Assembly: GCA_022703445.1 (NCBI GenBank)
Contig: JAKLDR010000013.1
Coordinates: 2,599 to 66,598 of the forward strand
DNA: 64,000 nt
Origin: Planctomycetota bacterium
Lineage (GTDB): Bacteria > Planctomycetota > SZUA-567 > JAKLDR01
Reading direction: 5' to 3'
Shown piece after piece: positions 1,121 through 55,314 of this stretch; the stretch's first letter is position 1; every line of letters begins with the position of its first letter. The notes beneath the pieces were generated by a model, which saw only the letters and a list, made by a program, of their open reading frames with translations, was not told the DNA's origin and searched no databases. A program made the position numbers and the translations under genes.

Positions 1121-3916
1121 CTACTTGACCTCGACCTTGACCACGTTGCTGATCGGGCTCTCGTTGCTGCACTCGTCGCGGGCCTTGAGCGCGAAGTGGT
1201 AGGTGCCGGGCTTGAGGCCTTTGACCGTGAACTCTTCCTTCTCGCCGGCCTTCTTCGGGGCGGGCTCGCCGGCGACGTTCTCGGCCCCCCAGAAGGAGCA
1301 CTCCCCGCCGCCCTTGGCGAGCTCGACGATGGTGATATCCGACCACTTGACCTGGTAGACTGCCGCCTGGCCCTCGGTGCCGTCGTCGCCGGGCGCGGTC
1401 CAACTGAGCTTGGCCTCGCCGGCGCCGGCCGGCTCGGCGGTCAGGTCCTTGACCGCCGCGGGTGCGGCCTTGTCCGGCCGGAGCTTCATCCACAGGTACG
1501 CGTTGCAGCAGGGCATGTAGTCATCGTAGCCGCCGTCGCCGAGCTTGATGTACTTCTCGGGCTTCTCGCTAAGGTACTTCGGGTTGCCGGTCTGGTCCCA
1601 GGCGAACGCGTTCTGGACCGGGAACTTGCTCTTGGCGTCGGTCCGGCCCTGGGCCAGGCCTATGACCAGGTCGCGCATGCGCTCGTCGCCGGTGACGTTG
1701 TGGGCCAGCACCACCGAGCGGCTGAAGACGTTGTAGAACCAGTCGTTGCCGTAGTTGATGCGCGGCGTGCTGCGGTTGGCCCGGGCCACCTCCCAGAAGT
1801 TGTCCATGGCCTTGGCGACGTAGTCCCTGCACTCCTCCGAGCCGGTCAGGTCGTAGTAGCGCATCAGCGTCCGGAAGCACCAGCCGGTGTCCCGGCCGAT
1901 GCCGACCTTCTTGGTGCCCACGTAGGCCCCGCCGACCGCCGCGGCGTTGCGGGCGATCTCCAGCGCCCGGCTGTCGCCGAAGAGGCAGTACAGGTCGTAG
2001 TGCTCGTCGAGCCCCAGGTGCTCGGGGTTGGGCAGGTACCATTCGGTGCGGGCGTACTTGCCGGCGCTGTACTTCTTGAGCTCCTCGTCGTTGGGCGCCG
2101 CGCGCTTGCACCACTCCTCGCAGACGTTGTTGGCGCTGAAGCTGCCCCAGTCCTTGTACTCGAAGGGCTTGGTGCCCTGGATGTAGCAGGAGCGGATGTT
2201 GCGGGTGTGCATGTCCCGGCGCCAGCCGAACTCCATCCAGGTGGGATGCTGGGTGTTGATCGCCCGCCAGAGGTAGTTGGTCGACCAGATCGGCTCGTAG
2301 TTCCAGGGCGAGTGCCCGGCGTACTCCTCCCAGCGGCAGCCGAAGACCTGCCAGCCGTAGGCGTTGCCCTTGAGGTAGTCGGTGGTGAAGTAGCGCCGTT
2401 CGGTGACGGCCAGCGGGAAGCCGCTGTCGTCGTTGATGGTCGCGTAGGTCCCGATGTCGGCCAGCGCCCCGCAGGCCGCGTAGTGCTCGCGCGGGCACAG
2501 GGCGTAGAGCGGCGGATTGACGTTGTCGGCCACCACGTGCGGCCAGGGCCGGTCGCGGAGCAGGCCCTTCCACTGGCTGCGGGTCTGGTTGTCGCGGGCG
2601 TACTCGTAGCCCGGGGCCTTCTTCATCCCCCGGCCGTAGAAGAGCAGCCACAGCTCCTGGCCGGCCCCTCCCGCGTCCGGGAGCCAGTGGACGGCCTTGT
2701 ACTCGCGGGGCAGGATGCCGATCCGGACGGTGCCGTCGTGGGCCACCTCGATGGCCTTGGGGAACTGCTGCCAGAAGTAGCGGGGCACGATCACGGCGCC
2801 GAACTTCTCGCCGCCGACCGCCACCAGCCCGCGGGCCTGGTCGCCGGAGCCCAGGACCTTCTCGCCGGCCTTGCCCTTGAGGGTCATGCGGTAGCCGCGG
2901 AAGGAGCTGAGGTCGCCGGTGTCCTTGCCCTCGACGCCCGGGTTCACCTTCCAGGTCTCCGAGCCGTTGGAGTCCTGATAGATGACCGCGCTCTCGCCCT
3001 CGCGGAGTTCGTCGTCCACGGGGGCCACGCCGTACATCCGGAACATCACCAGCTTGGGCGCCTCCGGGTCGTCGGGCTTGACCTCCGGCTTGAGGTTGAG
3101 CCGGGTCACCAGCGAGAAGTCCTCGAAGGTCGGGCTGCCGATGGGCTGGGCGGAGGCGTTGTTGATGCAGGCGTCGAGCCGCACCAGGCTCTTGTTCGCG
3201 TAGAAGTGCATGCGCAGGTCGTAGCCGTACATCCCGCGGGAGTAGCCCTTGCCCTCCGGCGCCCGGTGCATGCCCCTGGCTACGATGCAGACCCGCACCG
3301 GGCCGGCCTCCTCGACCTTGACCTCGACCGTCCCCTCAGAGGAGAGGTACTTCTGGCCGAAGGTGTCCTCGACCACCGAGCCGGATGCCGGGTTCGGGCT
3401 GACCGCCTCCTCGTCATCGGAGAACTGTCCGTCGGCATTGAGGTCGATGCGCACGCGGTCGAAGAGGTTGAACTTCCTGCGGCTGATCGTGAACTGGGCC
3501 GGGCCGGTGGTCACGGTGATGGCCTCGTCGGTCTGCGCGACCTTGAGCGGCGAGTCGTAGTCCTTCTCCCGCCCGTCGGCCACGGTGAAGCTCTTGCGGT
3601 CGAAGTCGCCGACGCCGGTGTGGAAGTCGACCAGGGCCCAGCGCAGCGAGTTGTCCTTGTACCACCAGCGCGAGAGCTCCCGAAACTGGGCAACGACCTC
3701 CTTGCCGTCAGCGTCGAGCAGCCGGAGCGTCTTGGCGTCCTTGACCTGCCCGGGCAGGAAGGGCACGCCGATGGTCACGCACTCGGGGCCGCGGCCCTGG
3801 CCGGCGGTCTCGCTGACGGTCAGCGGGATCTTGAGCTCTCCGGCGGAGGAGCCGGTCCCCATACACGCCGCGACCAGCACCGCCGCCAGGCCTGCGTAAG
3901 TCCGTGTCCGTCTCAT
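1121..3916 (-). CDS. Large secreted polysaccharide-active protein (PcRGLX/YetA-like lyase/hydrolase candidate) with C-terminal fibronectin type III domain
   Basis: ORF 1121..4096. I moved the start to internal ATG 3916 because MRRTRTYAGLAAVLVAACMGTGSSAGE is a signal peptide and the upstream 60 residues look non-coding. The N-terminal IPLTVSETAGQGRGPECVTIGVPFLPGQ and the ~930-aa size recall PcRGLX-like proteins (memory-based, unverified). The last ~110 aa (LSWTAPGDDG..YQVKWS..KPGTYHFALKARD) are FN3-like. Confidence 0.6.
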   Translation of the reverse strand: MRRTRTYAGLAAVLVAACMGTGSSAGELKIPLTVSETAGQGRGPECVTIGVPFLPGQVKDAKTLRLLDADGKEVVAQFRELSRWWYKDNSLRWALVDFHTGVGDFDRKSFTVADGREKDYDSPLKVAQTDEAITVTTGPAQFTISRRKFNLFDRVRIDLNADGQFSDDEEAVSPNPASGSVVEDTFGQKYLSSEGTVEVKVEEAGPVRVCIVARGMHRAPEGKGYSRGMYGYDLRMHFYANKSLVRLDACINNASAQPIGSPTFEDFSLVTRLNLKPEVKPDDPEAPKLVMFRMYGVAPVDDELREGESAVIYQDSNGSETWKVNPGVEGKDTGDLSSFRGYRMTLKGKAGEKVLGSGDQARGLVAVGGEKFGAVIVPRYFWQQFPKAIEVAHDGTVRIGILPREYKAVHWLPDAGGAGQELWLLFYGRGMKKAPGYEYARDNQTRSQWKGLLRDRPWPHVVADNVNPPLYALCPREHYAACGALADIGTYATINDDSGFPLAVTERRYFTTDYLKGNAYGWQVFGCRWEEYAGHSPWNYEPIWSTNYLWRAINTQHPTWMEFGWRRDMHTRNIRSCYIQGTKPFEYKDWGSFSANNVCEEWCKRAAPNDEELKKYSAGKYARTEWYLPNPEHLGLDEHYDLYCLFGDSRALEIARNAAAVGGAYVGTKKVGIGRDTGWCFRTLMRYYDLTGSEECRDYVAKAMDNFWEVARANRSTPRINYGNDWFYNVFSRSVVLAHNVTGDERMRDLVIGLAQGRTDAKSKFPVQNAFAWDQTGNPKYLSEKPEKYIKLGDGGYDDYMPCCNAYLWMKLRPDKAAPAAVKDLTAEPAGAGEAKLSWTAPGDDGTEGQAAVYQVKWSDITIVELAKGGGECSFWGAENVAGEPAPKKAGEKEEFTVKGLKPGTYHFALKARDECSNESPISNVVKVEVK

Positions 3917-6455: not shown

Positions 6456-7100
6456 ATGTTCACCGGGATCGTCGAGTCGGTCGGGAAGCTCCTGGCCGTC
6501 GAGCCGCGCGGCGGCGCGCTGCGCCTGGCCGTGGACCTCGGCGGGCTCGCCGAGGGCACCAAGCTCGGCGACAGCATCGCCGTCTCCGGGCCGTGCCTGA
6601 CCGTGGCGGAACTCTCCGGCTCGGTGGCGCGCTTCGACGCGGTGGCCGAGACCGTTGCCAGGACCACCATGAAGGACTGGCGCGCCGGGCGGCCGGTCAA
6701 CCTTGAGCGCGCGGTCGCGGCCGGCGCGCGCCTCGGCGGACACTTCGTGACCGGGCACATCGACGGGCGCTCGAGGGCGATCGCCGTCCGCAAGGTCGGC
6801 GGGGGGCTGGAGATCGACTTCAGCATCCCGGCGGGCTCGGCGCGCTACGTCGCCGAGAAGGGCTCGGTCGCGCTCGACGGCGTCAGCCTGACGGTGGCCC
6901 GGCTCCTGTCCGAGGAGGCCTTCCGGGTCGCGCTCATCCCCCACACCCTCGGCGCCACCACGCTCGAGGCGCTCCGCGCCGGCGACGAGGTCAACTTCGA
7001 GGCCGACATCCTGGCGCGCTACGCGGCGCGGATCATGGGGCGCGACGCGGCGGGCGGCCCCCTCACCGAGGAGAAGCTCCGCGCCCAGGGATTCATCTGA
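6456..7100 (+). CDS. ribE: Riboflavin synthase alpha chain
   Basis: MFTGIVESVGKL... N-terminus, internal repeat (second GHFVTGHIDG... half), 214 aa. This is the classic riboflavin synthase layout. Confidence 0.95.
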   Translation: MFTGIVESVGKLLAVEPRGGALRLAVDLGGLAEGTKLGDSIAVSGPCLTVAELSGSVARFDAVAETVARTTMKDWRAGRPVNLERAVAAGARLGGHFVTGHIDGRSRAIAVRKVGGGLEIDFSIPAGSARYVAEKGSVALDGVSLTVARLLSEEAFRVALIPHTLGATTLEALRAGDEVNFEADILARYAARIMGRDAAGGPLTEEKLRAQGFI

Positions 7101-7119: not shown

Positions 7120-7533
7120 ATGGACACGCACGGCGCACCCACCGGGGACCCGGAGGGCGAACTGCGGGGCTCGCCCTATGCGCAGTTTCAGAACGACGAG
7201 CTGATCCTGCGCGACGAACTGGCCATCGACCGGACCCTGCTGGCCAACGAGCGGACGCTGCTGGCCTATCTGCGCTCGGCCATCGGCCTGCTCATCGCCG
7301 GCGTCACCATAATGCACTTCGGCCAGGAGGGCTGGTTCTGGGGAGTCGGGGTGGGCTGCCTCCCGTGCGGAGTCGTCGCCGGGGTGATAGGCATCATCAG
7401 GTTCCGAAGCATGGACAGGTCCATCTCGCAGCTCAGAGTGCGTCCGGAAGCCCGGGCCGGACAGGCCGGGGACGCGGCCCGGCCGGGCGCAGGGCGCGGC
7501 GACGCAGGCGGTGCGACGGGGAACCGCTGCTGA
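7120..7533 (+). CDS. DUF202 (YidH-like) membrane protein
   Basis: LRDELAIDRTLLANERTLLAYLRSAIGLLIAG is the DUF202 hallmark, followed by a second TM segment. Confidence 0.8.
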   Translation: MDTHGAPTGDPEGELRGSPYAQFQNDELILRDELAIDRTLLANERTLLAYLRSAIGLLIAGVTIMHFGQEGWFWGVGVGCLPCGVVAGVIGIIRFRSMDRSISQLRVRPEARAGQAGDAARPGAGRGDAGGATGNRC

Positions 7534-7566
7534 GGAGCCGCAGCGCCGCCAACCCCCGGGGCGTTC

Positions 7567-7594
7567 TTGACAGCGGCCGGGACCGCCCTATAGT
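7567..7594 (+). promoter_or_regulatory. Sigma70-type promoter candidate TTGACA-N16-TATAGT
   Basis: TTGACA at 7567..7572, a 16-nt spacer, and TATAGT at 7589..7594, in the 68-nt gap after the DUF202 gene. The ATG at 7602 lies only 7 nt past the -10 element. Confidence 0.45.
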
Positions 7595-7601
7595 CGCCGC
7601 A

Positions 7602-7877
7602 ATGCCCGCGTTCAGGAATCCCAGACGCATGGCCAAAGCCGTGGCCTTCGGCGGCCTCTCGCTGCTGTCCTACGCGCTGGTCTTCGTCTTTCAGGACCGG
7701 GTGATGGACTACACGACCCGCGGGGCCGGCCACGCCGTCCTGCCGGTCCTGGGCGTCCTCTACTTCTCGCTGATCCACGGGGCTTTCGCCAGCAACCTCA
7801 TCGCCCTCTTCGGCGTCGAGGCCGCCGGCCGCAGGCGGGAGGGCGGCGGGGACCGGCAGGAACCGGACAGCCGATGA
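7602..7877 (+). CDS. Small membrane protein
   Basis: Internal ATG 7602 of ORF 7365..7877 (alternative ATG 7629). Two hydrophobic helices (AVAFGGLSLLSYALVFVF and VLPVLGVLYFSLIHGAF). The stop overlaps the next start (ATGA at 7874..7877). Confidence 0.55.
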   Translation: MPAFRNPRRMAKAVAFGGLSLLSYALVFVFQDRVMDYTTRGAGHAVLPVLGVLYFSLIHGAFASNLIALFGVEAAGRRREGGGDRQEPDSR

Positions 7878-9229
7878 AGCACGTCCCGGCCCTTGCGGCC
7901 ATCCTTGGCGCCATCTTCCTGTCCTGCGGCGCGCAGACGGCGCTGGCGGGGGACGGGTCCGGCGGCGGACGGAGCCGGAGCGGCTTCATCACCGAGGTCG
8001 ACGCCGTCGAGCGCACGGCGCTGTTCAGGGCCGATCGGTCCGCGGAACCGGTCAGGCTGAAGATCGACGACGCGCTTGACCCCCGCAATATCCCGGAGGG
8101 CCGGAAGGTCCTGGTCCACACCCGGACGGACCAGGGCGTCGAGAGGATCCAGAGCGTCTCGGCCATGTTCCTCGACCTGGGCCTGGATACGGTCTGCGCC
8201 CTGCTGGCCATCGGCTTCGTGGGCGGGATGCTCAGCGGCTTCATCGGCTCGGGCGGGGCCTTCGTGCTCACCCCCAGCATGATGTCCATGGGCGTGCCCG
8301 CCGCCGTGGCGGTGGCCAGCAACATGTGCCACAAGTTCCCCAAGGCGCTGGTCGGCGCCTACAAGCGGCACAAGTACGGACAGGTGGACCTCAAGCTGGG
8401 ACTGGTGCTGGCCGCCTCGGCCGTCGCCGGGGTGCAGATCGGCATACGCATCCAGGAGGCGGTGCTGAACCGGTGGGGCGGGGCCGGCTCGAACCTCTAC
8501 GTCAGCCTGGTCTTCGTCGCCGTGCTGGTCGTCGTCGGCTGCGTGGTGACCCGCGACGCCTGGCGCCTGTCCCGCGGTCGCGTCGCCGGACAGACCCACC
8601 GGATAGCCCGGTTCCTGCAGGGCCTGAAGATCCCCCCGATGATGCACTTCCGGACCGCCGGCGTGTCCGCCTCGGCCTGGATCACCATCCCCATAGGCCT
8701 GGGCACCGGCGTCCTGGCCGCCACCATTGCCGTCGGCGGCTTCATCGGCGTGCCCGGCATGATCTACCTGCTCGGCGTCAGCGCCATGGTGGCCAGCGCC
8801 ACCGAGCTGGTGGTGGCCTTCGCCATGGGACTGTGGGCCTCGGTCCAGTGGGGCCTCGACGGGATGATCGACGTGCGGCTGGCCCTGCTGCTCCTGGCCA
8901 CCTCGCTGATCGGCGTGCAGCTCGGCGCCCTGGGCACGACCTACGTCAAGGACCACGTCATCAAGCTGGTGATGGGCGTGGTCACGCTGATCGTGGCGGT
9001 GAGCCGCGCGGCCAAGGTGCCGGTCTACCTCGCGGACCTGGACAGCGTGGCCCTCGGCCCCGGGACCCGTTCCGTCCTGAACTCTTTCAGCTTCTGGACG
9101 CTCGTGGCCGCGCTGGCGGTGGCGGGGGTCATGATCTCGTGGGCGCTGATCACCGGCATCCGGCGGGCCCGGCAGGGCCAGAAGCCGGAACACGACCCCC
9201 TGGTGGACGCGGAGCCATCCGAGGACTGA
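7874..9229 (+). CDS. TSUP (TauE/SafE) family anion permease with N-terminal signal peptide and extra periplasmic segment
   Basis: 451 aa with repeated glycine-rich TM motifs (GFVGGMLSGFIGSGGAFVLTP, VGGFIGVPGMIYLLG) typical of the TauE/SafE family. Confidence 0.85.
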   Translation: MKHVPALAAILGAIFLSCGAQTALAGDGSGGGRSRSGFITEVDAVERTALFRADRSAEPVRLKIDDALDPRNIPEGRKVLVHTRTDQGVERIQSVSAMFLDLGLDTVCALLAIGFVGGMLSGFIGSGGAFVLTPSMMSMGVPAAVAVASNMCHKFPKALVGAYKRHKYGQVDLKLGLVLAASAVAGVQIGIRIQEAVLNRWGGAGSNLYVSLVFVAVLVVVGCVVTRDAWRLSRGRVAGQTHRIARFLQGLKIPPMMHFRTAGVSASAWITIPIGLGTGVLAATIAVGGFIGVPGMIYLLGVSAMVASATELVVAFAMGLWASVQWGLDGMIDVRLALLLLATSLIGVQLGALGTTYVKDHVIKLVMGVVTLIVAVSRAAKVPVYLADLDSVALGPGTRSVLNSFSFWTLVAALAVAGVMISWALITGIRRARQGQKPEHDPLVDAEPSED

Positions 9230-24602: not shown

Positions 24603-24726
24603 GTCGCTATCGGTATCGCTATCGGTATCGAAGCGAAGCGAGGTCGTAGCCCCTGGTCGGTCGGCCTCGCCGCTGCGCCCGCCGCGGCGGGCGAGCTCCG
24701 ATTGCGATACCGATACCGATAGCGAC
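24603..24726. repeat. Intergenic long hairpin with tandem-hexamer arms and a nested GC palindrome
   Basis: GTCGCTATCGGTATCG (24603..24618) pairs perfectly with CGATACCGATAGCGAC (24711..24726), and pairing extends ~5 bp further after one mismatch. The left arm is CTATCGGTATCG repeated twice. The central perfect palindrome GCCCGCCGCGGCGGGC lies at 24677..24692. Confidence 0.6.
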
Positions 24727-24755
24727 ACCGAGGATGGCGGCGAAGGGCAACAGGG

Positions 24756-48028: not shown

Positions 48029-48232
48029 CGAGGCTTTTACCGCAGAGCCGTTCGACAAGCTCACGGTCCAGGCCCTGAGCAAAGCCGAAGGGGGCGCGGA
48101 GTCGCGCAGAGGCGGTGGAGCTTGGGGGCCTGGGGTCTGGGAACGACCAGTCTGCCGATGCCCAAGAAGCCCTCTTGGGATCATCCTCCGCGTGACTCCG
48201 CGTCCTCCGCGGTGAAAGCCCCGATCGGTCGC

Positions 48233-49657
48233 TCAGCGCAGCTTCCGCAGCGCCCAGAGGAGCGACTGGACCTCGCCGTGGCGGCCCTCCCCGAAGCGCA
48301 GGGAGTCGTCCGCGTGGCGGTCGCGGCCCCAGGCCTCGAGCGCGCGGCGGAAGAGCGCCGCGACGCCCTTAGCCGCCGACTTCCGCCGGCCGGCCGCGCC
48401 GTAGCGGGCGACGGCCAGGAGCGCCTCGGCCGAGATGATCACGTCCCCGTAGCGCTCGCGGTTGCGGCGCACGGCCCGGCGCGCGGCTCTGAGCTCCGCC
48501 AGGACCGGCCCGAGCTGCCCGGCCAGCAGCGCCAGCTGCCTCCGGTCCTCCGCCGTGAAGGGCTCCTCGCGGCAGACGCCCTTCATGGTCCGGTCGTGGA
48601 GCCGCTGCTCGATGCCGCCGCCGAAGAGCGCGGCCAGCGCCGCCCCCGCCTGCCGGCCGTCGGCCATCCCGTAGAAGCCGCGGGCGAAGCGCTCGGCGAA
48701 GCGCGGGTCCTCCCCGCCGGCGGTGGCCAGGTGGCCGAAGAGGGCCAGGCCGTAGTCGATGGCTCCCGGAAGATAGCGCCACGGGCACCAGACGGTGTTG
48801 ACCAGACCGGACAGCCCCTTGCCCCGCCGGCGCTGGGGGAGGCTCCGCGCGACGGTGTTCCGGAGGTTGGCCAGGTTCATGGCGTTGGGGGCGATGCGCG
48901 TGCCATAGCAGACCGTCGCCGGGCAGGCCACCGTCTCGAAGCCGGCGTCCAGGAGCAGCGCCGCCTTGGGCGACTCGTACTCGGCGATGTACTGCCAGTT
49001 GAACATGAGCACGTCGCGCCGGAAGTTCTTCATGATCCTGGGCTCGTGGACCACATGGTCGGCCCACATGGCCGGGCGGCGCCCGAGCTTGCGCACGGTC
49101 CCGTGCACCCAGGCGGAGTGGGCCGCGAAGCGCTGCCAGGCCTCGCTCCCCGCCCCAAAGCTGCGGCGGCAGCGCGGGCACTTGCCGAACTCGACCTCGT
49201 CGAGCCCCACGTGGATGACCGGGTGGGGGAAGATCGCGGCGGTGTCGCGGAGCAGGTCGGCGATGATCTCGCGGGTCTCGGGGTGGCTAGGGCAGATGGC
49301 GTTGAAGCCCCACTGGTGGTCGACCTGCTCGCCGAGGTGGCGGTACCTGGGGTGCGAAGTGATGAGCGCCGCGTGGCCCAGGCACTCGATCTCGGGCATC
49401 ACCGCGATGCCGTGCCGCGCGGCGAGAGCGACGAACCGGCGCATCTCCTCCGGGGTGAAGGCCCCCGGCGTGGCCAGCTCCGGACGCGACGGGAAGACCA
49501 GCGCGCAACGCTGGTCATCGATGAGATGGAGGTGGAGCAGGTTGTAGCCCCACTCGGCGAGCCTGGGGAGCAGCGCCTCGTAGTAAGAGCGCCGCTCGGT
49601 TATACGGCCGAGGTCGAGCATCACGCCACGGAGTTCGAATGCGGGCTTGGCGGTCAC
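48233..49657 (-). CDS. Glycoside hydrolase family 20-like (beta-N-acetylhexosaminidase catalytic domain)
   Basis: [10 protein letters not shown] opening of the TIM barrel, [16 protein letters not shown], and the HVGLDEV catalytic D-E pair context. GTG 49657 overlaps the regulator stop (GTGA); an alternative start is ATG 36 nt downstream. Confidence 0.75.
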
Positions 49658-51114
49658 GGCTGGGCAGTCCTTTCTTCCTCGCGTCCCGAGGGCAGTCCGT
49701 ACTCCTCGATCTTCTTGCGCAGGGTGGTGCGGTGCAGCCCCAGTTCGCGCGCGGCCTGCACCTGGTTGCCGCCGACGGCGGCGAGCACCTCGGCGATGAC
49801 CGCACGCTCGGCAAGGCGGACCGCCTCGGCGTGGATGGTCCCGTCCCCGGACGGGTCAGGGCCGGCGCGGTGTGCGGCCAGCATCTCGCAGGCCAGCCTG
49901 CGGGCCAGGGCGTCGATGCTGCCGGGCAGCCCGCCCGGGCCGCCGGAGCCGGCCATCCCCGGCGGCAGGTGCTCGACGCCCACCGTCCCGCCGGTCCCGG
50001 CCAGGGCCGCGGCCCGGTCCAGGCAGTTGCGGAGTTCGCGGACGTTGCCCGGCCAGTCGTGGGCCTCGAGGGCCGAGAGCGCCTCCCGGCTGATCTCGGT
50101 GGGCCGGCCGGCCCGGTTCCCGGACCCGGAGAGGAAGTGGGCGACGAGCAGCGGGACATCCTCCCGGCGCTCTCGGAGCGGCGGCAGCACTATGCGCAGC
50201 ACGTCCAGGCGGTAGAAGAGGTCCTCCCGGAAGGCGCCGGCGCGGACCGCCGCGGCCAGGTCGCGGTTGGTGGCCGAGATCACCCGGACGTCGGCCCGGC
50301 GCGGCTCGCTCTCGCCGAGGCGCTCGAAGGTTCGCGATTCGAGGAAGCGCAGCAGCTTGGCCTGCATGCCCGGGCTCATCTCCCCGACCTCGTCGAGGAA
50401 GAGCGTGCCGCCGTCGGCGGCCTCGACCCGGCCGGTGCGGTTGGCCACCGCCCCGGTGAAGGCCCCGCGGGCGTGGCCGAAGAGCTCGGTCTCGAGCAGG
50501 GTCTCGGGCAGCCCGGCGCAGTTGACCGCCACGAAGGGGCCGGAACCCCGCGCCGAATGCAGGTGGATGGCCCGCGCGGCCAGCTCCTTGCCCGTGCCGC
50601 TCTCGCCGGAGAGCAGCACGGTGGCATCGGCGGCGGCCGCGGCGGCCAGCTGCCGGTAGAGCGCCTGCATGGCGGCGGAGCGCCCCACCAGGAGCGTCTC
50701 GGGCGGAAAATCGGCGAGGTCCTGCCGGGCGCCGTCGAGCGCCGAGCGGGCCGCGCCCTGGGCCAGCGCCCGGTTGAGCGCCGCCCGGGCGGTCTCCACG
50801 CTGAGCGGCTTGGACAGGTAGTCGAAGGCCCCCTTGCGGACCGCCTCCACCGCGGTGGACAGGGTCCCGTGGCCGGTCATGACCATGACCGGGGAGTCAG
50901 GCAGCAGCGCGCGCATCCGGACCAGGGCCTCGAGCCCGGACATGCCGGGCAGGCGGACGTCCATGAACACGGCGGCCGGCCGCTCGCGCTCGGCCAGCTC
51001 CAGCCCCTCCTCGGCGCTGGAGGCGGCCAGGGCGCGGTGGCCCTCCCTGCCGAGCAGCATGGCCAGAGCGCGCGAAACGCCGCTGTCGTCGTCGATCACC
51101 AGGACGGTGGCCAT
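49654..51114 (-). CDS. NtrC-family sigma54-dependent response regulator
   Basis: Receiver [31 protein letters not shown]+ core [24 protein letters not shown], and FLDEVGEM. C-terminal Fis-type [23 protein letters not shown]. Confidence 0.9.
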
Positions 51115-51150
51115 GCCGCTGCTCCTCGCCGGGGCTCCGCTGACGACAAC

Positions 51151-51178
51151 ATCGTAGCGGGGAAGGGCGGAGCGTCAA
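51151..51178 (-). promoter_or_regulatory. Sigma70-type promoter candidate for the response-regulator gene (TTGACG-N16-TACGAT)
   Basis: On the minus strand, TTGACG lies at 51178..51173, then a 16-nt spacer, then TACGAT at 51156..51151. AGGAG sits 7 nt before ATG 51114. Confidence 0.4.
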
Positions 51179-51361
51179 CGCCTGTTGGCGGCTTGCGCGG
51201 GGGAGCGCCCGGGGAAGGGGAGATGCAATCCCCCAACCCCTGACGAGGGCATGAATCACGGGAGCAGGCTAGCGGCTCTGACTGCGGAACGGAGCGGCGG
51301 CTCCTTCTGACACCCGTCGAGTCTGAATCATACCCACTTTCCGAGGAGCGCCGAACGGGGC

Positions 51362-51501
51362 GGGTCCGGTGCACGGGGCGGGCCAGTCTCTACCGCTCGG
51401 AGGGCATCCTGCCCTCCGAGCTGCGACGAAGCTGCCCTATCGCCATCCATGGCTTCGGGCATCTTCGACGCCGAGCCCGGCCCACCCCGTGCACCGGACC
51501 C
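51362..51501. repeat. Long-stem structured element A (candidate structured RNA or MITE-like inverted repeat)
   Basis: The 23-nt arms 51362..51384 and 51479..51501 pair at 22/23 positions. Inside lie a perfect 11-bp hairpin (51396..51406 / 51410..51420, loop TCC) and a second 14-nt-arm hairpin (51424..51437 / 51457..51470, 12/14). Confidence 0.6.
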
Positions 51502-51520
51502 ACGATGGCCGGGAGACGGA

Positions 51521-51653
51521 GGTCCAGGGCTGGGGGAGGAGTTGGCCGGCGCTTAGAACGCCGGAGGCCCGGACGGCCGCGAGGCGTTCTCGCGCAGCGA
51601 GCGGCCAGGGATGGCCGCGAGCGGTAGGCCAACGCCTCCCCCAGCCCTGGACC
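51521..51653. repeat. Long-stem structured element B (same architecture as A)
   Basis: The 27-nt arms 51521..51547 and 51627..51653 pair at 26/27 positions. Inside lie AGAACGCC/GGCGTTCT (51555..51562 / 51583..51590) and GCGGCCA/TGGCCGC (51601..51607 / 51612..51618). Confidence 0.6.
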
Positions 51654-51742
51654 GGGGCACCACCGCGGGGCCTTGGAAACTGGTGACTTGCGGCTGACGC
51701 ACAGGCGGGGTAAGCTGAGTGCGGAGATCGAGGAGGACAGAC

Positions 51743-52060
51743 ATGCCCACTGACCCCAGGAACCACTCGGAAACCTCCGCCGGCGAGCCCAAGCCCGCCA
51801 AGGCCGATGGCCTGGAGGCCTATCACACCGTGGCCGACACCGTGGGCATGGTGCCCAATGTCCGCTTCAGGGACAACCTGATCCAGGGCCTGGTCATCGG
51901 CGGGGGGGCGCTGATCTCCACGCTGGTCGGATTGGTCCTGGGCGGCTGGACCGGTGCGGCCATCGGTTTGGTCTGCGGGCTGGTCCTCTTCCTGCTGGTC
52001 AGCGGTGCCGTGCTCATGGTCATAGGCTGGGTCCGGGCAGCCAGAAAGCTGAAGAAGTAG
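51743..52060 (+). CDS. Small membrane protein
   Basis: ORF 51719..52060, started at ATG 51743 (GAGGAGG upstream). Two Gly-rich TM helices (LVIGGGALISTLVGLVLGGW and GLVCGLVLFLLVSGAVLMVIGW). Confidence 0.5.
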   Translation: MPTDPRNHSETSAGEPKPAKADGLEAYHTVADTVGMVPNVRFRDNLIQGLVIGGGALISTLVGLVLGGWTGAAIGLVCGLVLFLLVSGAVLMVIGWVRAARKLKK

Positions 52061-52062
52061 CT

Positions 52063-52545
52063 GTGGACGGGCAGAAGGCCGCAGGAATCCTGTCGTGGGC
52101 GGCCCTGGCGGCCGGGCTGCTCCTCTTGCTGTGCCTGCATGCCGCGTTTCTGGGCGTCCCGGCGCTTCTGCTGGGAGTGGTCGGGGTCATCTATTCGCTT
52201 CGCAGATCCGGATCCGCGGAAAGTCGCCTCAATCGCCACCGCACCGGGCTTGCCGCGCTCGGGGTCGTGACCGTTGCCCACCTCCTGGTCCTGGCCTTCT
52301 CGGTCCAGTTCTTCCTGATCCCCACGGGGACCGACATCCGGCCGATGGGCTGGACGCTGCTGATGTTCTTCATCGCCATCATCACGCTGGTGGTGGCCGT
52401 GCCGCTGGCGATTGCCGCAATCGCGAAGGAACGCCCGCGCCTGCCGGGGCTGATCGGGCTGGTCCTCGGGTTCACGCCGCTATGCTCTGCCCTGCTGCTC
52501 CTGCGCTTGGCCGTGTGGGCGAAGGGGCTTCATCTGTCGGAGTGA
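52063..52545 (+). CDS. Membrane protein (four TM helices)
   Basis: GTG 52063 lies 2 nt after the previous stop. 160 aa, strongly hydrophobic, with no recognised family. Confidence 0.55.
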   Translation: MDGQKAAGILSWAALAAGLLLLLCLHAAFLGVPALLLGVVGVIYSLRRSGSAESRLNRHRTGLAALGVVTVAHLLVLAFSVQFFLIPTGTDIRPMGWTLLMFFIAIITLVVAVPLAIAAIAKERPRLPGLIGLVLGFTPLCSALLLLRLAVWAKGLHLSE

Positions 52546-52586
52546 AGCCCCTTTCCCCGCATCACGCTGGTTCGGGCCGGGCGGCC

Positions 52587-53834
52587 TCAGCCCGGGAAGC
52601 GATCGGCCCGGGTGCGAACAAAGGTGGCCAGGGCCTCGTCGAAGCGCTCGGCTCGGCGGGCCTTGAAGTAGGCCGCCTCAAGCCTATGGACCGCCGCCTG
52701 ATCGGACTCCCAGAGATCCTCCAGCCTCTCAGCCAGACGCGGCGCGTCAGGCCGGAGGCCTGCCCGCCTTAAGTACCGGGCGATGGCCTTGATGGCGGCC
52801 GCCACTCGCGGCACCCCGAGGCCCCCAGCGGCCTCGGCCGCTGCAAATATGGTGGTTGCCGGGTACTGCGGGGGGATGGCCTGAAGGCCGTCGTGGTGGA
52901 TGGCGTCGTCCAGATCGTGGATGGCCAGAACCGCCGTCTCTTCCTGAGTCAGCGGCTCGCTGCCTACCTTGTGCCGGAGGCACTCGGCCAGCGTTCCCAC
53001 CCAGGCCTCCGGGGCTGCGCTTCTGACCAGCTTCCTAAGATCGTAGCGCGCCGCTGGATTGGCCAGGAGGTCGGGGCGCATCTTGGCCAGCAGATGACTG
53101 CATCGTTCGGCCTGTTGCTTGGCCGAGCGCTCACCAGCGTCGAGGGCGGCGTGGCAGAGAATCACCTCGAAACGGTTGTTGTTCACCGTGTTGAGCAACG
53201 GGCGGATCATCCGGATGGGGCGCTCGAGCAGGAAGGCGACCATCTCCGGCCGGAGCGTGTCAAGGGCCTCCTCCAGGACGCCGCAGGTCAACGGCGCGCC
53301 GGCATCGAGCAGGAGCTGGACCATTTTGATGGAGGCCTTCCGAGCAGCGCAGCACAGGTAGAGATTGTCGGCGGAGCTGTCCGCAATGCGCACGTCGGCA
53401 CCCGCGGCAACCAGTCGGCCAGCCCCGCGCACGGAGTCCTCAGCCGCGGCCTGCAGCAGCCGGGCGGCCCGGGGTGGAAGCAGCTTGACCGGGATGTAGC
53501 GCCCACCCGGGCTGCTCCAACCAGCCGCGGCGCTTCAGACTCCGGGCGATCCGGGCCAGCAGAGCCTTGGAGCAGGCGGACTCCGCCCAGCCCAGGGCGC
53601 TGTGGCAGACCGCCTCGGAGAAGTCGTCGAAGGGGCTGTAGCGCGAGGCTGCCAGGGCATCGAAGAGCCGGACGTCCCGGCTTTCGATAGCCTCCACATA
53701 CGCGGTCAGGCCGCCTCCGAAGGCGGAGGTGGTGTTGGGATTGGCACCTCGGCGATCAGGCGGCGCACCAGGGTCAGATCGCCGTCTTCGGTCGCCCTGC
53801 GGAGATCATAGCGCGTCCGATTAGATCCAGACAT
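52587..53834 (-). pseudogene. Ankyrin-repeat protein with DMP19/DUF4375-like C-terminal region, interrupted by two frameshifts
   Basis: Three consecutive minus-strand ORFs join into one sensible protein if 1 nt is restored at ~53747..53750 (..EDGDLTLVRRLIAE|GANPNTTSAFGGGLTAY..) and another near 53500..53513 (..RRGWLEQPG|RYIPVKLL..LVAAGADVRIAD..MVQLLLDAGAPL). These are ankyrin signatures. Both breaks are at G/C runs, so sequencing error is an alternative. Confidence 0.55.
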
Positions 53835-53862
53835 TTCCGCTCCCTTGTAGCATCGGCCCCGG

Positions 53863-55314
53863 TCAGCTTGCTGGTGCCCCCCACCCCGGCAACTCCACCC
53901 TGAACGTCGCCCCGCGGCCGGTCGCAGCGCCGCCGCCATCGCAGCTCAAGCTCCCGCCGTGCTCCTCGGCGATCCGCCGGGAGACGGCCAGGCCCAGCCC
54001 GGCGCCGCCGCTCTTGGTGGTGTAGAAGGGCGCGAAGATCTTCTCGACCTCCTCGGGCCTGATCCCCGGGCCGGAGTCCGAGACCTCGAGCAGGAGACGT
54101 CCGCCCCCGCCCGCCGCCGGCCTGATCCGCACGACGATCTCGCCGCCACGCGGCTGGGCCTGCATGGCGTTCAGGACCAGGTTCACGAGCACCTGCTTGA
54201 CCTTGTTGCGGTCGGCCCTGGCGGCCCCCGCGGCCGGGTCGAACTCGGTCCTGGCCACGACGTGGGCGTGCTCCAGCTGCCGGCGCATGAAGGCCAGGAC
54301 CTCCTCGACCAGCGCGGGGAGTTCCACCCGCGCGAAGACCGGCGGCGCCGGCCGGGCGAAGGAGACCATCTCGTCGACCACGAGCTCCAGGCGCGCCAGC
54401 TCCTCGAGGACCGCGCGGAGCCGCTCGGCGGCCTCCGGGCGCTTCTCGTCGGCCAGTTCCATCTCCACGACCATCTTGGCGCTGGTCAGGGGGTTCCGCA
54501 CCTCGTGGGCCATGGCCGCGGCCATCTGCCCGGCCACGGCCATCCGTTCGGAGCGGACCAGTTCCTCGCGCGCCGCGACGAGCGCGGCGCTCATCCGCTC
54601 GAGGCTCTCGCCGAGTTCCTCCACCTCGCGCCCGCCGCCCGGGGCGGCCCGGAAGGCCAGTTCGCCGCCGGCCGCGCGGCCGGCCTCGCCGGCCAGCTCG
54701 CCGAGCGGCCGGGCCACGGTGCGGGCCAGCAGGAACCCGAGGAACACCGCCGCCAGCGCGCCGGCCAGCGCCGTCCAGCCGATGGGAGCGGCCGCGGCGC
54801 GCCGGACGCGGTCGATCTCCGCCTGGGGGACAAGCAGCAGGGTCAGCCGCGGGACGCTCCGGCCCCCGGCGGCCTCAGCGTCCAGCGGGGGGTCGCTGCG
54901 CCAGGCGCTGAACACCTGGAAGCGCCGCCCGGCCAGGGTCAGGGGCCCGTCGAGGCGAGGCTCCGGCCGCGGCGACCGGCCATAGGCGCTCAGGTGGCGC
55001 TGCAGTTCGGCCCGCTCGGCCTCCGGCAGGGTGGTGTCGATGAGCGGGGCGCTGCCGCCGCCGCCGGCCGAAAGGCCCCGGACGCTGGCCACCTCGGCGC
55101 CGACCAGCGCCTTGGTCCTCGCCAGGATGTCGGGGTTGCTGACGAAGCTCGGCGGGATGGACTGGACCAGGGAGGCCATGCGGCCGCGGTAGAGCGCCTC
55201 GGCGGCCAGCCCTGCGCGCCAGGCGGCCAGGCCCGCGGTGATCAGGGAGACGGCCAGGAAGAGGCCCCCGAAGGCCAGGGCCAGTCGCGTGCCCAGGCCC
55301 AGCGGACGCCTCAT
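53863..55314 (-). CDS. Sensor histidine kinase (two TM, periplasmic loop, HAMP-like, HisKA/HATPase)
   Basis: ORF 53863..56136, started at ATG 55314, which overlaps the lgt stop (ATGA). H-box AMAHEVRNPL, N-box LVNLVLNAMQA, G-boxes SDSGPGI and GGAGLGLAVS. Confidence 0.85.
   Translation of the reverse strand: MRRPLGLGTRLALAFGGLFLAVSLITAGLAAWRAGLAAEALYRGRMASLVQSIPPSFVSNPDILARTKALVGAEVASVRGLSAGGGGSAPLIDTTLPEAERAELQRHLSAYGRSPRPEPRLDGPLTLAGRRFQVFSAWRSDPPLDAEAAGGRSVPRLTLLLVPQAEIDRVRRAAAAPIGWTALAGALAAVFLGFLLARTVARPLGELAGEAGRAAGGELAFRAAPGGGREVEELGESLERMSAALVAAREELVRSERMAVAGQMAAAMAHEVRNPLTSAKMVVEMELADEKRPEAAERLRAVLEELARLELVVDEMVSFARPAPPVFARVELPALVEEVLAFMRRQLEHAHVVARTEFDPAAGAARADRNKVKQVLVNLVLNAMQAQPRGGEIVVRIRPAAGGGGRLLLEVSDSGPGIRPEEVEKIFAPFYTTKSGGAGLGLAVSRRIAEEHGGSLSCDGGGAATGRGATFRVELPGWGAPAS

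Follow-up and report, generated by a model that had tools for sequence, protein, structure and literature searches.

Among the classical MITEs of bacteria, several have extensive secondary structure, including Correia/NEMIS in Neisseria, ERIC/IRU in enterobacteria and RPE in Rickettsia. Elements of these three groups are 100-400 bp long, lack coding sequence and have both terminal inverted repeats and a target duplication; they are dispersed in intergenic DNA near promoters, where the whole element makes up a long stem-loop and can be co-transcribed with its neighbours. A second described system is that of the REPINs, inverted doublets whose stems carry compensatory changes, are held by Watson-Crick pairs only and can fold either as one long hairpin or separately (PMC3116915). 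Repeats tagged with GTAG, together with their head-head and tail-tail dimers, have moreover been reported in the PVC superphylum (PMC3733652). In the literature that we searched, no description of a family such as the one considered here was found for Planctomycetota. The feature under study is probably a copy of a mobile repeat of ~372 bp, non-coding and non-autonomous, MITE-like or REPIN-like in kind, that is scattered in planctomycete genomes; as such, it likely represents an ordinary kind of element in a new family, and not a new regulatory RNA.

The stretch of DNA analysed here (the window, 64,000 nt in length, from a Planctomycetota MAG) holds the feature between a gene for an NtrC-type regulator and an ORF for a small membrane protein, which are the flanking genes that an earlier reading of the sequence alone (the sequence-only reading) had described. 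The parts of the locus are as follows, the ends of the repeat unit in the window being approximate, within ~6 nt:

49654-51114, minus strand: gene for the NtrC-type sigma-54 activator
51178-51151: sigma-70-like promoter-like site for the regulator, between the unit and the gene, in the conserved part
51323-51693, no strand assigned: whole repeat unit of ~372 bp, a closed nested fold; homology to the copies at loci L108, L100 and L103 stops here and the flanks are unrelated
51323-51361, no strand assigned: left tail, an outer terminal inverted repeat (CTGAATCATACCCACTTTCC...) that pairs with the right tail as outer helix P0
51362-51501, minus strand: module A, a three-helix module (159 bits to model R1)
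51473-51501 with 51362-51390, minus strand: helix P1 of module A, the arms of element A (29 nt, 90% complementary; one mismatch in the inner 23 nt)
51423-51471, minus strand: helix P2 of module A, a branched hairpin
51395-51421, minus strand: helix P3 of module A, a perfect 12-bp hairpin
51472, 51422 and 51391-51394, minus strand: junctions of module A, reading G, A and GGTA respectively
51502-51520, no strand assigned: central spacer of 19 nt (ACGATGGCCGGGAGACGGA) between the inverted modules
51521-51653, plus strand: module B, a three-helix module (94 bits to model R1)
51521-51547 with 51627-51653, plus strand: helix P1 of module B, the arms of element B (27 nt, 96% complementary)
51549-51595, plus strand: helix P2 of module B, a hairpin
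51597-51622, plus strand: helix P3 of module B, a hairpin with tandem G.A/A.G and a GGGA loop
51548, 51596 and 51623-51626, plus strand: junctions of module B, reading G, A and GGTA respectively
51654-51693, no strand assigned: right tail, an outer terminal inverted repeat (...GGAAACTGGTGACTTGCGG), its tip degenerate in the window copy
51743-52060, plus strand: small membrane-protein ORF

An inverted-repeat scan recovered the arms of two elements, A and B, where the sequence-only reading had placed them, and each element encloses the two hairpins that had been proposed for it, at slightly wider coordinates. The claim that so much pairing exceeds chance was likewise upheld once folding was set against shuffled controls. 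Positions 51355-51660 (306 nt) fold with z = -10 on the plus strand and -13.8 on the minus strand, a fold that none of 100 shuffles equalled, and with DNA folding parameters each module reaches z = -9.6 to -14.4; inverted repeats of such quality are expected ~0.5 times per shuffled window. The adjacent 247 nt of the same intergenic spacer fold with z = -0.4, and the strong fold is therefore not a G+C artefact of the window, which is 71% G+C. Since four independent assemblies carry an identical spacer sequence, an assembly artefact is ruled out as well. The low-complexity ORFs that had been described as running through the stems do run through them; a protein search with the longest, which served as a proxy for copies of the element, gave no hits, and we found no coding capacity in the unit.

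The two elements had been taken for a tandem pair of identical architecture, and this did not survive closer comparison, as they are mirror images of one another. The minus strand of A aligns with the plus strand of B at z = 8.7 over the full length and at z = 4.5 over the interiors alone, whereas the two plus strands align at z < 1; when A, B and the spacer were compared with the window by BLAST, neither plain same-orientation similarity of A and B nor any other copy emerged. As inverted copies the two are ~60% identical. A hand-made structural alignment yields 59 pair columns, 55 of which have bases in both copies, and these divide into 32 identical pairs, 17 with double-sided changes that keep the pairing, none with a one-sided change and six broken in one copy. 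Because A(-) aligns with B(+) while A(+) does not, and the parts follow in the same order, A and B are, on the strength of these alignments, inverted and diverged copies of one three-helix module. They form the two halves of a single unit, which travels as a whole. Each module measures ~135-140 nt and runs through P1 (26-28 bp with one internal mismatch), G, a branched P2, A, P3, GGTA and the return strand of P1, the three helices meeting at a three-way junction.

The true unit is larger than the two elements originally noted and extends over ~51323-51693, because tails of ~39-40 nt beyond each module are also conserved between copies and pair with each other as mutual inverted repeats. The left tail is conserved in L100 (TTGAACCATCCCCACTTCC, facing GTGAGTCATCCCAAGTTTC as the other tail of that copy) and in L108 (..GACCATCCCCAGTCTC), and the terminal repeats of the unit read TTGAAYCATCCCCA.... 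In all four units (4/4) the tails form a closing helix, with 12 perfect base pairs in L108, such that the whole is a nested structure of ~372 nt. The 19-nt central spacer is conserved in L108 and L100 and different in L103.

Copies elsewhere came from a metagenome scan with a two-arm skeleton pattern, which returned nine loci, four of them (L108, L100, L103 and L102) holding true relatives. The complete arrangement of A, spacer and B is present in L108, L100 and L103, at 91%, 83% and 78% identity to the window, and L102 has a solo B-type module 12 nt after the end of a Mur-ligase gene; the total, with the window included, is thus four units and one solo module. The flanks of the four outside copies do not match the window, the neighbours being FGE-sulfatase and class-V aminotransferase genes in L108 and a FliK-like gene and a double NDK-like gene in L100. 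The window and L100 probably belong to the same MAG, to judge from their neighbouring accessions (HOX05996.1/HOX04950.1) and shared sample (ERZ27257498). Within the window, a covariance model made from A and B gave no other convincing hit; model R2, run over the window and ~320 kb of planctomycete loci, added no member, and blastn matched the unit to nothing in the plasmid and phage collections. A junction-motif pattern (CGGCG..CGCAGC..CGAGCGGTAG) produced 15 matches in viral contigs, all of them chance by a covariance-model check. Loci L101, L104, L106 and L107, which have GGTCCGGGGC termini, were rejected as members, their interiors being different, their flanks extending the palindrome and direct repeats being absent.

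Evidence that the unit inserts comes from its ends. In L100 the unit (6682-7053) is bordered exactly at both flanks by a perfect 9-bp direct repeat, TCCGGCATG (chance ~5e-4 over the offsets tried), and the flanking repeat at L108 agrees at 8 of 9 positions; the window copy and L103 show no recognisable target duplication, which for the window copy is what the sequence-only reading had reported. Relatives of the L100 locus were obtained through its NDK-like gene, and one of them, L110, is syntenic with L100 (PRTase, FlhB-like, FliK-like and NDK-like genes). Its spacer measures 275 nt against 813 nt in L100, contains no module and has TGCGGCGTG only once, after which comes ACCTTGCA, as in L100. 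Once the unit and one 9-mer are taken out, L100 and L110 are colinear through the junction (74% identity in 139 nt), the alignment setting ...GCTCCGGCATG / ACCTTGCA... of L100 (the stroke marking the junction) against ...GCTGCGGCGTGACCTTGCA... of L110. Judged by this alignment, L110 is the empty site for the L100 insertion, at one site and with a left flank that is only moderately similar. Inverted-repeat insertions of MITE type were among the options first listed for the two elements, with the proviso that many dispersed copies with target-site duplications would make the elements ordinary MITEs. Four units and a solo module, duplications at 9/9 and 8/9 and an empty site go most of the way towards that outcome; the option fits best in view of these dispersed copies, duplications and empty site, and what has to be given up is the idea of two separate insertions in favour of one unit of ~372 bp.

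How the fold has changed among the copies bears on what maintains it. Aligned to the model, the nine modules have 92.8% of their cells paired (446 Watson-Crick, 21 G.U, 5 A.C and 31 other), and 27 of 57 pairs have changes on both sides, against 1-6 in slid-partner controls, with a covariation score of 0.437, whereas shuffles score 0.155. Between close copies, most differences are single changes that break a pair or turn it into a wobble, and subfamilies stand 11-15 compensated pairs apart, a pattern that fits selection on the fold in propagating lineages followed by decay of individual insertions. REPINs behave in this way too (PMC3116915). The unpaired junction bases (G, A and GGTA) are invariant among the modules, and GGA occurs in the P2 and P3 loops of nine out of nine.

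Strong covariation in all helices, invariant unpaired junctions and constant loops are also what would be seen if the modules were primarily functional RNAs, leaders or small RNAs transcribed outward, for which mobility is secondary; the three-way junction would then display its two GGA loops for an RNA-binding protein, CsrA for example, or would act on stability or translation in some other way. We consider this account, taken as a whole, improbable. It can draw on several strand-specific features: the outward-reading strand has 15 occurrences of GGATG and the antisense strand none (shuffle mean 2), G.U exceeds A.C on the outward strand by 21:5 in cells and 15:5 in column events (all five A.C coming from one copy), and the three of three units with resolved neighbours lie between divergent genes, each module being sense to the gene that it faces. 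There is a resemblance between the loop motif and the core of RUACARGGAUGU, the CsrA consensus, which has its GGA in a loop (PMC4347634), and CsrA has been reported to occur in Planctomycetes (PMC4682653). However, CA(G)GGAUG is frequent in the modules while the conserved ACA of that consensus is absent. A tblastn of E. coli CsrA (an approximate query) against the fetched DNA fragments gave no match, an uninformative result. Hardly any pairs are other than Watson-Crick, and either strand folds equally well, which is unusual for selection on a one-strand RNA; the copies also have the marks of insertions, namely a duplication and an empty site. In L100 the unit lies 3 nt upstream of a conserved promoter-like block with a -35-like hexamer, belonging to the gene that it faces, and, being upstream of that hexamer, it lies outside the transcript of the gene. 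The block, TTGCA[GC]-N16-TAT[GC]CT, precedes the 388-aa double NDK-like gene in six planctomycete relatives (at L100 7066, L110 5146, L109 9945, L112 1580, L118 427 and L117 119). No terminator-like site was found in 51000-54000, and no promoter-like site for a separate module transcript. The sequence-only reading could match the elements to no RNA family, and Rfam agrees with it, the covariance models giving 0 matches in the whole window at gathering thresholds and only sub-threshold miRNA-hairpin look-alikes at permissive settings; ARAGORN detected no tRNA or tmRNA.

The closest RNA comparison is with the CsrA-sequestering RNAs of CsrB/RsmZ type, which share with the unit several hairpins with GGA in their loops, variable stems with constant loops and several copies per genome. 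Unlike them, the unit is palindromic on both strands and insertion-like, with a target duplication, lacks ACA and shows no signs of a promoter or terminator. To our knowledge, no Csr-type RNA is known in Planctomycetota. We give slightly less credence still to a more ambitious combination, in which the module would be a functional folded nucleic acid on a mobile element, with two invariant GGA(U) loops and the GGUA junction on the outward strand acting either as a CsrA-like platform or as the recognition structure of an undescribed transposase. Were the platform version true, the element would bring neighbouring genes under post-transcriptional control in Planctomycetota, as a mobile decoy or leader; were the transposase version true, there would be an enzyme that needs a branched single-stranded substrate and yet makes a 9-bp duplication.

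Under the mobile-repeat reading, which we prefer, a transposase encoded elsewhere in the genome would mobilise the unit in trans, and the unit would insert into intergenic DNA with duplication of ~9 bp of target. Copying would continue only for those copies that can fold, be it as RNA or as single-stranded or cruciform DNA, such that selection on the propagating lineages would keep the internal fold, and individual insertions would decay afterwards. Binding of a transposase to double-stranded terminal repeats would, on its own, leave the internal covariation, the invariant junctions and the strand-biased GGA(T) loops unexplained; the unusually clean compensatory evolution and the strand bias of the GGA loops are small unexplained features.

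Set beside the classical MITEs, the unit has what defines them: a length of ~372 bp, no coding content, terminal inverted repeats (in four units), copies in unrelated contexts and an empty site (at one site). Its likeness to Correia/NEMIS, ERIC/IRU and RPE extends to its size range, target duplication (perfect in L100, 8/9 in L108), dispersed intergenic placement near promoters and the folding of the whole element into a long stem-loop. Unlike them, it is nested, its interior being an inverted duplication of a palindromic three-helix module, and the covariation of its internal helices is unusually clean; the duplication is of 9 bp, in contrast to the TA generally known for Correia. With REPINs the unit shares inverted palindromic modules with a short spacer, the ability to form one long hairpin or separate hairpins (a 'clover'), stems kept by compensatory changes, an intergenic and non-coding nature with solo remnants, and a conserved unpaired tag that contains GTAG. 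It departs from them in a branched module (with the three-way junction) that is 4-5 times larger, and in its outer terminal inverted repeats and 9-bp target duplication. The GTAG lies 3' of the P3 hairpin, whereas it lies 5' in GTAG REPs, and modules of 135-140 nt with stems of 26-28 bp contrast with REPs of 20-40 nt and 5-13 bp (PMC3733652). Membership of the REP/REPIN class was accordingly rejected on the 3' GTAG, the module size and the target duplication, the inverted doublet itself being present.

These likenesses nevertheless give some substance to the idea of a REPIN-like element moved as single-stranded DNA by a RAYT, the enzyme that mobilises REPINs, or by a tyrosine (HUH) transposase of IS200/IS605 type, that recognises the hairpins and the GGTAG by P3. 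The inverted doublet, the alternative folds and the compensatory, Watson-Crick-only changes are as in REPINs (PMC3116915), GTAG-tagged repeats and their dimers are on record for the PVC superphylum (PMC3733652), an unpaired GGTA(G) is conserved at the foot of the hairpin, and a solo module exists (L102). We regard it as an unlikely route all the same, in that the GTAG is on the 3' and not the 5' side of P3, the modules and stems are far larger than in REPs, and no RAYT gene was seen among the fetched DNA fragments. The unit has, in addition, terminal inverted repeats, a direct duplication of 9 bp and an empty site to match, none of which IS200/IS605-type transposition is known to produce. An integron attC site was considered and rejected, as the ends read GGTCC...GGACC and the tails ...CATCCCCA.../...TGGGGATG..., not the R''/R' core sites (RYYYAAC ... 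GTTRRRY), and no cassette array or integrase is found among the neighbouring genes.

The setting of the window copy invites a different explanation, namely a locus-specific protein-binding site that controls the divergent genes, be it a cruciform or an enhancer at which the adjacent NtrC-type sigma-54 activator would act. The copy lies in a divergent spacer beside the activator gene, its distance upstream of the small membrane-protein gene being ~50 nt and that upstream of the regulator gene ~210 nt. GGTGCAC/GTGCACC, which occurs in the arms of module A, is reminiscent of NtrC half-sites. We hold this explanation to be very improbable, and the dispersed copies already largely refute it: the unit stands beside unrelated genes with no NtrC-type gene adjacent, an observation that leaves the protein-binding cruciform offered by the sequence-only reading unsupported as a locus-specific site. 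Upstream of the small membrane-protein gene we see no canonical -24/-12 promoter, and the promoter-like site of the regulator falls between the unit and the regulator gene. A search with a loose sigma-54 pattern was uninformative, at 310 matches against 286 expected. The unit is furthermore absent from the orthologous locus in the closest species representative, L005, where the regulator is 84% identical and the genes for a histidine kinase and the NtrC-type regulator are adjacent, 189 bp apart.

What L005 lacks is a segment of 2.7 kb (window 51180-53880) that includes the unit. This segment is lineage-specific, and the unit lies inside it, now without a recognisable target duplication. It also contains the small membrane-protein ORFs at 51743-52060 and 52063-52545 and a 281-aa protein, p281, at 52587-53432, which has a weakly DMP19-like C-terminus and in a homologue search of 5.8 billion proteins matched only itself, as an orphan. 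Proteins p105, p160 and p281 were rejected as parts of the element because none of them accompanies other copies. On the other side of the regulator, the window shows a 4-nt overlap (49654-49657) of the regulator gene with the GH20 gene downstream, and L005 has ~1.17 kb of extra DNA between the two (7419-8590). An effect of the unit on its neighbouring genes is possible.

Long palindromic elements are common in this material, at ~1 per 46 kb across all fetched bacterial loci, Sphingomonas included, and the window has at least two more. One (24603-24731), just after a stop codon, has 32-nt arms of hexamer-periodic repeats (GGTATCGCTATCGGTATCG...) and a branched interior; a 78%-identical copy at L100 4301-4430 has unrelated flanks, which makes it another dispersed repeat family of the same organisms. 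The other (48085-48212), just downstream of the GH20 glycosidase gene, has an outer stem of 18-19 bp and two inner hairpins (z = -4.2) and matches the module model weakly (23-24 bits), its sequence being unrelated. Elsewhere, L101 (1506-1628) and L104 (1768-1891) share a dispersed palindromic family, 81% identical with unrelated flanks, whose termini, GGTCCGGGGCGCGGGGG, resemble those of the studied modules; L106 and L107 start with GGTCCGGGGC and have other interiors. In other planctomycete or unclassified MAGs, very stable long-stem elements of ~140 nt with branched interiors occur at L068 8972-9111 (a Gemmata MAG; z = -14) and L081 12593-12737 (z = -8), the latter with a tandem direct repeat in its interior, and a control scan of the Sphingomonas loci L014, L017 and L018 found a recurring inverted-repeat element, CGTCACCCCGGACTTGATCCGGGG, at ~3783-3855 and 7534-7622.

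Upstream of the NDK-like gene, other elements occupy the same place as the L100 unit, just before the promoter-like block. L118 has a 177-nt element (232-408) with 33-bp arms and a perfect 10-bp direct repeat (CGTTTCAAGG) on both sides, and L109 (9830-9917) and L112 (~1400-1540) have hexamer-periodic palindromes. This spot looks like an insertion hot spot.

For those who annotate planctomycete MAGs, the practical consequence is that the repeat should be masked, and that ORFs or ncRNAs should not be called through it. What appeared to be a tandem structured RNA is best read as a mobile palindromic repeat, and a repeat family, equipped with a working covariance model and defined ends, is added to a phylum whose repeats have barely been described. 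With at least 3-4 different families of palindromic elements landing just upstream of promoters in these genomes, such repeats are relevant both to the evolution of promoters and to breaks in assemblies.
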